Part shown: positions 56,835 to 60,651 of the stretch, piece after piece | How positions within the stretch are numbered: position 1 is the first letter of the stretch | Layout: each line of letters starts with the position of its first letter | NCBI RefSeq assembly: GCF_988242995.1 | Contig: NZ_OZ547043.1 | Strand: one strand, 5' to 3' | DNA length: 64,000 nucleotides | The notes under the pieces: generated by a model | Told to the model about the DNA's origin: nothing | The model's database searches: none | The model's input: only the letters and a program-made list of their open reading frames with translations | Position numbers and translations under genes: made by a program

Positions 56835-56881
56835 GACAGAAACTCCACCGGTTGTTAAACGGACGCTTGTCGCATCAACAT

Positions 56882-56910
56882 ATTTTGCTTAATCCGGGAT
56901 TAAGCAAAAT
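56882..56910. promoter_or_regulatory. 29-bp perfect palindrome between sinI-like gene and giant gene (candidate operator or RNA structure)
   Basis: ATTTTGCTTAATCC-G-GGATTAAGCAAAAT: 14-bp arms with a 1-nt centre. Confidence 0.5.
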
Positions 56911-56919
56911 ATGCGGAAA

Positions 56920-56943
56920 CAGCATTCCCTTGCGGGAATGCTG
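56920..56943 (-). terminator. Stem-loop 12 nt after sinI-like stop (candidate attenuator / partial terminator)
   Basis: 10-bp stem cagcattccc/gggaatgctg, 4-nt loop, followed on the mRNA strand by UUU. Confidence 0.45.
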
Positions 56944-56954
56944 CTGAGTACGCG

Positions 56955-57986: not shown

Positions 57987-60164
57987 TTATTTTTTGGTAT
58001 ACAGCACGCGTAAACCGTATCCCTGCAAGCCATCTCCCGCTTGTGCGCCATAGGTTTGCGCTGCTTCGCGGTTAGTGGCCGGAATCACAATGTCCTCATT
58101 GGAAGTGTTCGCCTGTGCACCCACTTCACCATTGATGCTCTTGCCGGTAAATTCCCACTTGTAGTCGTACTGCGCCATCTCTTCGTCAGTCAGTTTTTCG
58201 ACCTGCTGGAAGACACCGTCTTTATTGCTGTCACGCCACAAAACAAATCGATAAGTGTTGTTGAGCGGCAGCGGTTCTTTATCTTTACCTATCAGGTTGC
58301 TGGGTTTAGCTGCCCCCACACGATAGATAAATGCATTTAGCCCACCAATTTCTGCCCCGAGGAAAGTGACATCCACATAGTTACTGTCGTCGTAGGGCGC
58401 AGCTTTTGCTTTCCAGCGATAGGTGCCGGGTAAGGTACTGGAGAGGGTGACAGTGCCCTTTTCTTTATCTTGTTTAGCGATAAAAACGCAGGGGTTGTCG
58501 GTCGAGCAAGGCTTGTTGGTTAACGTCACTCGTTTGTCCTGCGCGTCGTAAAGCTGCGGCGTGAGGTTATCTTCCGGCAGCGCATCGCCATTGCGGTCGG
58601 TGTTATCGCCAAAGCTGTCGGTTACATCGAGATCCATCACCACACCATCAACGCCATCTGCCTGAGCGCTGGCTTCGTGGCTGTGGTTGTTCTCTTCCGG
58701 CACGTTCGCGATGTTATTAACAATCAACTCTATTTTACGGTCCTGCTGAACGGTGATTTCCACCACGCCAGAGTTCTGTCGGTTGCCCTTTTCATCTTCC
58801 AGTGCCAGACGTACTCGCCAGGTATTGAGTTTTTCTTGTTCGGCTTTGTCAGAGCTGTACTGCCAGGCGGGCAGCACCAGGTTCCAGTGGTTATTGTTAC
58901 CCTCTGTCAGGGTATTCTCTTTGATAACCGGCATAACCAACGTGCGGGCAGCATTGTTTTTCGCCTGCCATGACGCAGCGACAATTTTGTAGTGGTGGTT
59001 GATAAGCGCGTTAATGGTCCATTTACATTTTTCCAGCCCGACGGCCGCTTCGGGAGTGTCCTTAATGACGCACTCAGGGTGCTCGTTGGTGGCATCCGCT
59101 TTTAACCACAGGGTGACATCAAGCGGATCTTTTTCTTTGTATTCCAGAACAATAAAGTTATTACGCTCAACAAAATCATGACGACTGCCCATCAACGAGT
59201 GAGCCGCTTTCACTTTATCGCTATCCAATTGATCTTTTAGCGGAACGCCGAACTGATAATTAAGAGTGGCATTAATGCTGACATCGCTGTTATCTCCGGT
59301 CCCCGCTTTATAGTCCGCCCCAACGGTTAGTAATGGCACCGGTTGATAATTCAGTCCAAGTGTTACCGCGTAGGGATCTTTCTCCAAATTATCCGTACCA
59401 AAAAGGGCGACTTCATCGCCGTAATATTGCTCGAAGACAACTTTGCCCCCCAGTTGCGGATAAGAAGGTAACCAGGCTTCGGCACGAATATCCCAGCCGC
59501 GCGCAGGGCGTTCTTCATAAAAGTCGAAATCTTCAGAGTCTTTCCAGTCAGAAAGCGGATGATAATAGTTGCCAGAGAATTTTAAATAATCAGTCCACGC
59601 TTCGCCGCCTAAACCTAAACGGCGATGTCCTCGGGTAAAATCATAATCATAAAATATATTTCCGCCCAATAACCATTCATCAAAATTATGTCTTACCCCA
59701 AGACCAATATTCCCGATTGTACGATCTTCTTTTCGTTGCGCAGAAAATTGACTGAAATAAACAGTGGTTTGATTATCGTACCAGGGAACAAAATAATCGA
59801 TGGAACTACCATCCAGATCGCCGTCCTGGCCAATGGAGAGGTTCGAACGGACCTTACCGTAGGGAGAGAGTGTGTCTTCAATATAAGATTGTGCGGTTGA
59901 GGTGATTTGACTTTGCAGATAGCTTCTGGCCTGAGATTCCAGCGCCTCAGGGGTCAAGTTTTCAAACCCTTGCGTGGCGGAGTTGATGACGTAATCGGCT
60001 CCGCGCTCTTTCAGCGATTTACCCTTGTTGGTTTGTTCATCCTGCTGTGCTGCCTGGCTACCTAAATCAGGTAACGATTCGTTTTGCTTAACATTTATCT
60101 CTGGTGCCGCGAAAGCAGCACCAGAGATAAATGTTAGCATAATACAGCGTTTCCATCGCAGCAT
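57987..60164 (-). CDS. sinH: Intimin/invasin-family inverse autotransporter (type Ve), SinH-like
   Basis: ORF 57987..60194; start chosen at ATG 60164 giving signal peptide MLRWKRCIMLTFISGAAFA; beta-barrel translocator signature (GGNIFYDYDF...LGLGGEAWTDYLKFSGNYYH) followed by passenger domains. Confidence 0.85.
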   Translation of the reverse strand: MLRWKRCIMLTFISGAAFAAPEINVKQNESLPDLGSQAAQQDEQTNKGKSLKERGADYVINSATQGFENLTPEALESQARSYLQSQITSTAQSYIEDTLSPYGKVRSNLSIGQDGDLDGSSIDYFVPWYDNQTTVYFSQFSAQRKEDRTIGNIGLGVRHNFDEWLLGGNIFYDYDFTRGHRRLGLGGEAWTDYLKFSGNYYHPLSDWKDSEDFDFYEERPARGWDIRAEAWLPSYPQLGGKVVFEQYYGDEVALFGTDNLEKDPYAVTLGLNYQPVPLLTVGADYKAGTGDNSDVSINATLNYQFGVPLKDQLDSDKVKAAHSLMGSRHDFVERNNFIVLEYKEKDPLDVTLWLKADATNEHPECVIKDTPEAAVGLEKCKWTINALINHHYKIVAASWQAKNNAARTLVMPVIKENTLTEGNNNHWNLVLPAWQYSSDKAEQEKLNTWRVRLALEDEKGNRQNSGVVEITVQQDRKIELIVNNIANVPEENNHSHEASAQADGVDGVVMDLDVTDSFGDNTDRNGDALPEDNLTPQLYDAQDKRVTLTNKPCSTDNPCVFIAKQDKEKGTVTLSSTLPGTYRWKAKAAPYDDSNYVDVTFLGAEIGGLNAFIYRVGAAKPSNLIGKDKEPLPLNNTYRFVLWRDSNKDGVFQQVEKLTDEEMAQYDYKWEFTGKSINGEVGAQANTSNEDIVIPATNREAAQTYGAQAGDGLQGYGLRVLYTKK
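60089..60136. repeat. Perfect 19-bp inverted repeat (10-nt spacer) inside the sinH signal-peptide coding region
   Basis: taacatttatctctggtgc (60089-60107) ... gcaccagagataaatgtta (60118-60136); also creates a mirror-image ORF on the plus strand. Confidence 0.9.
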
Positions 60165-60194
60165 GCACTTTCCCTGTGACAATGATACAGTCAA

Positions 60195-60373
60195 AAATAA
60201 GCTTTAATATTGTATCCCTGATTATTCAGAAAGGCATGTCATAAAGAATAAATATATTCTTAATTATTTAAATTAGTGATTTCACTCAATTACATTAGTT
60301 ATTCCACTAATAACAGATTGTTTTACCATTCACATATTAAATATAAATGATAAAACAATATATTCACATGATA
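60195..60373 (-). promoter_or_regulatory. AT-rich promoter/leader region of the sinH-sinI-giant operon
   Basis: ~180 bp of strongly AT-rich non-coding DNA immediately upstream of sinH. Confidence 0.5.
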
Positions 60374-60589
60374 TTAAGCAATAACAAATTCAACGCGTTT
60401 TTTAGATATTAAATCGTGCCCATGTTGGCAGAAATAATCCACAGCACCACAAGCTTTTAACACTTGTAACGGCTGATGACACTCAGGGCAAAGTGCCTGG
60501 ACGGTAAAGTCTTTGTCGCAAGTTGCACAGTGGGCAGTCTCGCCATTGCGTTCGAGAGGGGTTTTGCAGGTTGGACAGTTGAGTGCCAT
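60374..60589 (-). CDS. yfgJ: Zinc-ribbon protein YfgJ (DUF1407)
   Basis: 71-aa ORF with two CPxC...C/H zinc-ribbon pairs (CPTCKT..CATCDK; CPECHQ..CQHGH). Confidence 0.88.
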   Translation of the reverse strand: MALNCPTCKTPLERNGETAHCATCDKDFTVQALCPECHQPLQVLKACGAVDYFCQHGHDLISKKRVEFVIA

Positions 60590-60651
60590 AAATACTCCTC
60601 GCGCGTTATTCGGTTTCCCTTTCCGTGTGGAAAGGGAAACCAGATAAGTGA

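Follow-up and report, generated by a model that had tools for sequence, protein, structure and literature searches.

The inverse autotransporter gene sinH carries, within the codons of its signal peptide, a perfect 19-bp inverted repeat, and it is an evenly balanced proposition that this repeat is an RNA-level element under selection, a stem-loop in the sinH mRNA. The gene, also named iatB, occupies positions 57987–60164 on the minus strand of a 64,000-nucleotide stretch of contig NZ_OZ547043.1 from RefSeq assembly GCF_988242995.1, which is referred to here as the window. It encodes an intimin-like inverse autotransporter of 725 amino acids, as given by the list of open reading frames (ORFs), the translation, and the RefSeq start. 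Direct reading and a repeat search confirm the original prediction, made from the letters of the DNA, that the arms of the repeat at 60089–60107 and 60118–60136 are exact reverse complements with a 10-nucleotide gap between them. The plus strand at 60089–60136 reads TAACATTTATCTCTGGTGC-CGCGAAAGCA-GCACCAGAGATAAATGTTA (arm, spacer, arm), with TAACATTTATCTCTGGTGC at 60089–60107 and GCACCAGAGATAAATGTTA at 60118–60136; the repeat search stretches the arms to 22 nucleotides with 95% complementarity and a 4-nucleotide gap. The repeat is the longest perfect inverted repeat found in a scan of the whole window with loops of 3–20 nucleotides, in which the runners-up, of 16 and 13 bp, are both intergenic. 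The number of 19-bp inverted repeats expected from the base composition is about 3e-6, and the view that the palindrome is not a product of chance is upheld.

The RNA fold predicted for the sinH transcript contains a helix of 22 contiguous base pairs, a bulged A, and three outer pairs (60085–60139, minus strand). The 5′ end of the transcript is AGGGAAAGUGC-AUG CUG CGA UGG AAA CGC UGU AUU AUG CUA ACA UUU AUC UCU GGU GCU GCU UUC GCG GCA CCA GAG AUA AAU GUU AAG. The helix corresponds to codons 9–27, at +26 to +80 of the mRNA, and runs from the signal-peptide core across the predicted cleavage site into the first mature residues, with the 19-bp arms lying within codons 10–26. The 5′ arm of the mRNA (TAACATTTATCTCTGGTGC; 60118–60136, minus strand) holds codons 10–16 (L T F I S G A), which encode the hydrophobic core and c-region of the signal peptide. 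The 3′ arm (GCACCAGAGATAAATGTTA; 60089–60107, minus strand) holds codons 20–26 (A P E I N V K) and its first codon is also that of the predicted mature protein. Signal-peptide cleavage is predicted between A-F-A and A-P by the −3/−1 alanine rule. In the RNA, spacer bases 60115–60117 and 60108–60110 supply U·G, G-C, and C-G pairs, and the remaining spacer forms a UUUC tetraloop (60111–60114, minus strand) within the codon for Phe, the residue at −2 relative to the predicted cleavage site. The codon register of the stem, worked out from alignments, places third positions opposite third positions and first positions opposite second positions.

The predicted fold of a 141-nucleotide segment has an energy of −53.6 kcal/mol (z = −6.7), and none of 200 dinucleotide shuffles is as stable. 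The hairpin alone has predicted energies of −43.7 kcal/mol at 25 °C, −37.1 kcal/mol at 37 °C, and −34.2 kcal/mol at 42 °C, which agrees with the expectation of a very stable mRNA hairpin. The arms are more than 99% paired, and the stem remains folded in the prediction between 15 and 90 °C.

The 5′ ends of sinH were collected from E. coli allele classes, from one genome per species across bacteria, from Salmonella-type contigs, and from a metagenome scan, the search pattern of which used only anchors beyond the hairpin, as a guard against ascertainment bias. The hairpin is present in every Escherichia lineage sampled: the E. coli allele classes, E. albertii, E. whittamii, E1V33, and SCPM-8794. 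Its stability on the sense strand ranges from −29 to −42 kcal/mol across Escherichia, and the stem lies at the same distance from the start codon in all Escherichia alleles. A formal covariation test was run on 11 distinct Escherichia haplotypes (nine in an earlier run) and 25 pairs, giving 275 pair cells; the re-registered PT62-type allele was left out of this alignment. Standard pairs occupy 95.3% of the cells, against 31–49% in a control in which the partners were slid by 1–3 columns. Four pairs have changed on both sides (6 cells), and the observed covariation values were reached by 0–5 of 500 column shuffles.

The paired changes are distributed over several lineages. E. albertii has replaced two adjacent pairs, A-U/U-A, with G-C/C-G, and this double change alters the protein from TF to TL in the signal peptide and from NV to SV at the mature end. 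E. whittamii and E1V33 have replaced a C-G pair with U-A, and SCPM-8794 and E. coli E69 show the U·G intermediate at that pair. PT62-type E. coli (11 genomes) has undergone the changes A-U to C-G and C-G to U-A, and its stem, shortened in both arms after codon loss, has been re-registered to a perfect 17+3 bp; a MAFFT codon-style alignment gives this allele another possible history with an identical resulting helix. Pair 17 in the CE10-type clade occurs as U·U in one contig, as G·U in the common form, and as A-U in one contig, and outside this clade it is U-A or U·G. The loop-adjacent U·G pair, composed of two fourfold-degenerate third positions, is invariant in all 11 haplotypes. Transitions on a single side of the stem have created approximately eight G·U and three C·A oppositions on the sense strand (8:2 before the PT62-type variants were sampled). 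In each of the 12 haplotypes compared, the sense strand folds more stably than the antisense strand, with a mean difference of 5.6 kcal/mol.

Synonymous sites of the hairpin are conserved as well. Codons 9–26 contain synonymous differences from four other Escherichia species at 0/14, 0/14, 2/13, and 4/13 of the codons with identical residues, and the corresponding value for the rest of sinH is ~0.44. Amino-acid differences follow the opposite pattern, with 0.22–0.28 in the hairpin versus 0.11–0.13 elsewhere in the gene. The 18-codon windows starting at codons 11–14 have the lowest synonymous divergence of the 708 windows in sinH, and the ratio of amino-acid to synonymous differences in the hairpin window ranks third of 708. 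In a simulation in which the arms evolved independently using sinH's own substitution masks, 19.5 ± 2 of the 25 pairs were retained, and the observed numbers are 22–24 (P = 0.015–0.18 per lineage). These comparisons suggest that the hairpin codons are constrained at the level of nucleotides rather than that of the protein. The alignments leave it about evenly poised whether selection for pairing within the sense RNA has kept the stem since the ancestor of Escherichia.

The sinH genes of Salmonella, Citrobacter, and Superficieibacter encode different N-termini and have no significant structure at the position of the hairpin. Pseudocitrobacter sinH has the A-P-E-I motif in common with Escherichia and forms 8–11-bp stems in the same register, with Ser-Gly codons opposite Pro-Glu codons; in P. 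vendiensis, the stem is perfect (TCAGGCTCGG/CCGAGCCTGA). The Pseudocitrobacter stems are not significant relative to synonymous resampling (z = −0.7 to −1.8). The same control underestimates the signal of Escherichia, since the amino-acid sequence alone already permits a palindrome. The original prediction made the fate of the palindrome in orthologues a touchstone of its function, and on this point it stands for Escherichia, where the palindrome is kept with compensatory changes in all lineages sampled, and falls for Salmonella, Citrobacter, and Superficieibacter, where it is absent.

Several observations weigh against a selected stem-loop. The sinH genes of Salmonella, Citrobacter, and Superficieibacter work without the hairpin, and thus it is not needed for the biogenesis of SinH as such. 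The simulation yields P values of only 0.015–0.18 for individual lineages. Columns with any synonymous variation make up 6/11 in the hairpin and 68% in the rest of the gene, a difference that is not significant, although the pairwise and sliding-window measure of synonymous divergence is more sensitive than this count of columns. The 8:3 ratio of G·U to C·A oppositions is not significant alone and only suggestive. A synonymous variant that creates a C·A opposition is present in 3 of the 11 PT62-type genomes; among the genomes with this variant that were fetched, UTME-7 has an intact sinH and 6EVA a frameshifted one. The lineages are few and related and the counts small, which makes the evidence from covariation and strand preference moderate. 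Adjacent double changes and a symmetric change of length are the signature of template switching, which could mimic selection. Cleavage by RNase III, folding in vivo, and an effect on expression are model predictions. In addition, hairpins of up to −18.6 kcal/mol in the same class of position had almost no effect on expression (PMC5435973).

The main rival to a selected stem-loop is a functionless palindrome that was made by one or more template-switch events, with arms kept alike by template copying and changes tolerated by the protein; this is unlikely, yet it deserves serious weight. Template switching gives rise to mutational hotspots at quasi-palindromes of E. coli (PMC7202029), it homogenises the arms of inverted repeats in coding DNA and so yields amino-acid changes (PMC8604942), and it can create or repair RNA stems and give multibase compensatory changes (PMC8794818). 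The hairpins described in these studies are, like that of sinH, intragenic perfect reverse-complement repeats with clustered, mirrored multi-nucleotide changes in both arms, including amino-acid replacements. The compensations in adjacent doublets of E. albertii and PT62, the matching change of length in both PT62 arms, and the lack of the hairpin in close relatives such as Salmonella are as expected of such an origin. The outer codons of the 3′ arm (AAT GTT AAG) differ from those of Pseudocitrobacter (TCT GCG TCT) at 7 of 9 nucleotides, whereas the codons beside them differ mainly at third positions, a cluster that would fit template switching. However, homogenisation alone would let third-third pairs drift neutrally, and the core of the hairpin has the lowest synonymous divergence; unlike a pure template-switch hairpin, the sinH stem shows stronger conservation at its synonymous sites than the remainder of the gene does. 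Template switching is expected to make only Watson–Crick corrections and to show no strand preference. By contrast, the T·G mismatch between two freely variable third positions has remained uncorrected in 11 of 11 haplotypes, wobble states have survived divergence at the species level, the sense strand gives the better fold in all 12 haplotypes compared, and one U·U mismatch was repaired to G·U instead of the templated A-U. The restoration to G·U favours selection on RNA, because templated copying cannot yield G·U. The uncorrected wobble and the G·U restoration thus point to selection on RNA added to a mutational mechanism. This moderate evidence suggests that template switching is not the whole story; it probably lengthened the stem and supplied some of the double changes, which would then have been retained by selection. 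The recombination footprint offered among the original explanations is viable in the form of replication template switching.

In RefSeq, a locus with 99.8% identity is annotated with a sinH start codon equivalent to 60164, and this annotation bears out the identity of the gene. A Shine-Dalgarno-like sequence read from the DNA (AGGGAAAG; 60168–60175, minus strand) ends 3 nucleotides upstream of the start codon (60162–60164); it is conserved in orthologues as AGGGA or AGGA and is predicted to be mostly unpaired (0.82). By translation, codons 1–19 (MLRWKRCIMLTFISGAAFA; 60108–60164, minus strand) encode the signal peptide. The 5′ arm of the mRNA begins, as had been stated, 2 nucleotides past the in-frame ATG at 60140–60138 and 26 nucleotides past the ATG at 60164–60162. 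The ribosome footprint of E. coli reaches 13 nucleotides into the coding region, and hairpins placed beyond it caused less than twofold repression; the hairpins tested were no more stable than −18.6 kcal/mol, and duplexes above 8 bp were avoided to prevent degradation (PMC5435973). The claim that structure at this position strongly affects initiation does not hold at the real start, since the first paired base of the helix is 23 nucleotides past the start codon, outside the 13-nucleotide footprint. Like those constructs, the sinH stem lies within the first 30 codons of an E. coli gene, but it is twice as stable and a far longer duplex. Because it is outside the footprint, the strong initiation block of that study should not apply to it. 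An initiation-blocking N-terminal hairpin was rejected, as the helix does not overlap the segment from the start codon to +13 nucleotides. Sequestration of the Shine-Dalgarno sequence was rejected too: its accessibility in silico is 0.82 with the stem versus 0.76 with either arm broken by synonymous changes, and is thus essentially unaltered. The start codon itself is part of a weak 7-bp hairpin (AUGC-U-GCG ... CGC-U-GUAU; 60142–60164, minus strand) located 2 nucleotides upstream of the large helix, with predicted energies of −4.6 kcal/mol at 37 °C and −6.9 kcal/mol at 25 °C; one of its pairs occurs as C-G, U-A, and G·U among Escherichia. Initiation could be affected by this small hairpin, which, in contrast to the large stem, overlaps the footprint of the ribosome.

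An effect on elongation is improbable, but has some points in its favour. A ribosome encountering the stem with its P site near codons 5–6 would still cover the start region, and slow unwinding would limit further loading, so that an outer-membrane protein dependent on Sec and BAM would be made at a controlled pace without the aid of a nuclease. Early pausing of ribosomes on mRNAs of secreted and membrane proteins is a known theme. The base of the stem is suitably placed at 23 nucleotides past the start, its position is fixed in all Escherichia alleles, and it is approximately twice as stable as any hairpin of PMC5435973. Against such a throttle, hairpins at or beyond +14 in that study gave less than twofold repression and no detectable effect on elongation; moreover, elongation should rarely be limiting for a weakly initiated message, and a pause at codons 5–13 would precede the exit of the signal peptide and could not time targeting directly. 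A DNA-level element, either the operator of a dimeric regulator or a cruciform site affecting sinH transcription, is much less probable still. The dyad symmetry is perfect, and the repeat is near the 5′ end of a horizontally acquired gene with AT-rich flanks. However, operators are usually 20–24 bp long or shorter, which the 48 bp of the repeat far exceeds, the arms covary at at least five positions and so preserve no fixed half-site sequence, which speaks against base-specific recognition, and the mismatches favour the sense strand, being mostly G·U. The GC-rich centre should disfavour cruciform extrusion, and no promoter-like site was found nearby in a simple scan. The suggestion of a binding site for a dimeric regulator is thus unlikely to be right.

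The suggested thermosensor, together with a mask for an alternative start at 60140, has a negligible probability. The hairpin starts 2 nucleotides past that in-frame ATG, and sinH is associated with virulence, as are the genes with RNA thermometers of the ROSE and fourU types, which resemble the sinH stem in being stem-loops at the 5′ ends of mRNAs. Those thermometers are weak, imperfect stems that engage the Shine-Dalgarno sequence or start codon and melt at 30–42 °C, and the sinH stem does neither. It is predicted to stay folded up to 90 °C, with no melting between 25 and 37 °C (−43.7 versus −37.1 kcal/mol), the temperatures at which folding had been proposed for comparison, and it leaves the Shine-Dalgarno sequence and the annotated start free. 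The ATG at codon 9 (60140) is not conserved, since many E. coli have ATT and other species ACG at this codon, and no Shine-Dalgarno sequence precedes it.

Because the helix is outside the initiation footprint, does not melt, and forms a near-perfect duplex of at least 22 bp, action of the selected stem-loop on the fate of the mRNA is the most plausible. An RNase III site or another RNA control element, which had been among the functions first proposed, fits the size and conservation of the stem and is viable; the specific mechanism through RNase III is put forward only tentatively, as a model. RNase III requires about two helical turns of duplex, and its rnc-dependent double cleavage is expected to leave 2-nucleotide 3′ overhangs. 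For a near-continuous double-stranded RNA (dsRNA) of ~20–22 bp, the sinH stem offers 22 contiguous pairs, one of them U·G, and three more past a 1-nucleotide bulge. RNase III inactivates mRNAs, such as nirB, arfA, and mltD, by cuts inside coding regions (PMC5371410), the betT mRNA is also its target (PMC4067347), and many sites cut in vivo map to coding sequences (PMC6212723). A substrate is expected to be free of antideterminant pairs in the proximal and distal boxes and to contain a paired G-C-containing dinucleotide between the cuts (PMC6212723).

It is possible, if doubtful, that the stem is a translation-gated RNase III switch in the signal-peptide codons of SinH, an adhesin of extraintestinal pathogenic E. 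coli, with selection on the RNA dictating N-terminal amino acids and template switching supplying the paired mutations. Frequent loading and passage of ribosomes would hold the stem open. Sparse translation would let it refold, after which the message would be cut or otherwise blocked, and the outer-membrane adhesin would be expressed at low levels except under active translation. A contribution may also come from modestly slower elongation at the beginning of the gene. An alternative with the opposite effect is that the stem protects the mRNA against 5′-end-dependent RNase E. The stems of betT, mltD, nirB, arfA, and proU, in or beside the coding regions, that are targeted by RNase III in E. 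coli are, like that of sinH, long intramolecular double-stranded segments of mRNA (PMC4067347, PMC5371410), and the outcome expected in common would be control of mRNA stability in competition with translation. By contrast, the known stems are usually imperfect and have mapped cleavages, whereas the sinH stem is near-perfect, lies in signal-peptide codons, occurs in one genus, and is known from sequence. The published RNase III maps of K-12, which is not known to carry sinH, presumably cannot cover the gene. The papers on sinH and iatB that were searched make no mention of the hairpin. The element would belong to known kinds, the coding-region regulatory stems and the hairpins shaped by template switching.

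Searches for other identities of the repeat gave the following results. A repeated or mobile element (repetitive extragenic palindrome (REP), miniature inverted-repeat transposable element (MITE), or insertion sequence (IS) end) is ruled out: the repeat is a single locus in each complete E. coli genome, with an apparent second place due to the palindrome matching itself, and the phage search gave no match to the hairpin region. Plasmid matches in PLSDB were limited to two 4.9-Mb records that carry sinH, NZ_CP141089.1 and NZ_CP134663.1, which look like chromosomes filed as plasmids. Rfam 15 at a permissive E-value returned only generic matches to microRNA precursors, with 14–28 bits against thresholds of 90–200. 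An intrinsic terminator was rejected, as there is no U tail, and no terminator-like site was found on either strand at 59950–60420. No slippery heptamer was seen 5–9 nucleotides upstream of the stem in reading the sequence, for which no dedicated search was run. The plus-strand ORF at 60025–60207 exists in the mechanical ORF list (60 amino acids, TTG start); RefSeq has no annotated feature at its position on the strand opposite sinH, and this mirror ORF is probably spurious, a side effect of the palindrome, as had been supposed.

SinH contributes to fitness during infection of the urinary tract, and it is a candidate antigen for vaccines against invasive E. coli (PMC9937491). A megablast search found the gene in ~1,700–1,746 of 5,426 complete E. 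coli genomes, each of which carries one copy, on the chromosome. The gene lies between yfgJ and a member of the sinI family. A contig of a metagenome-assembled genome binned as 'Collinsella sp.' (JAIJJM010000600.1) is 99% identical to E. coli sinH and was probably mis-binned. In E. coli EFF60, IS5 is inserted at CTAA at the 5′ base of the hairpin (equivalent to ~60137 of the window), replacing the sinH promoter region and the first nine codons. The gene is a pseudogene with a stop after 230 amino acids in E. coli E69, and it is frameshifted in the O145:H28 strain 16003 and in strain 6EVA. The hairpins of these three strains are among the weakest (−28 to −29.5 kcal/mol); the same hairpin alleles are also present in intact sinH genes, and there is thus no clear link between a weak hairpin and a pseudogene.

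Upstream of sinH lies an AT-rich spacer of ~210 bp (60165–60373) that has no match to the sigma-70 consensus in a simple scan and contains an imperfect 24-nucleotide inverted repeat at 60312–60364. A 13-bp perfect inverted repeat without a U tail is located at 60612–60641, in the short spacer between der and yfgJ. On the other side of the gene, the 120-nucleotide spacer from the sinI stop codon (56955) to the start of the next adhesin gene (~56834) contains a 16-bp perfect inverted repeat with a 3-nucleotide loop (56879–56913, minus strand) and, neighbouring it, a 9-bp GC-rich hairpin (~56925–56950, minus strand). Therefore, the same gene cluster holds another potential dsRNA-forming stem.

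A post-transcriptional brake at the 5′ end of sinH, if true, would affect the timing and amount of a vaccine antigen as well as the expression of sinH in heterologous systems. The locus provides a clean test of whether RNA stems are kept by selection on pairing or by template-switch homogenisation. Since third positions of codons pair with third positions, fully synonymous mutants that break and restore the stem are possible, and natural sinH alleles already display intermediates. Amino-acid substitutions in signal peptides should be interpreted with caution, as they may reflect a constraint on the nucleic acid and not selection at the level of the protein. If the translation-gated switch is real, sinH would be a natural case of RNA structure driving the evolution of a protein sequence.

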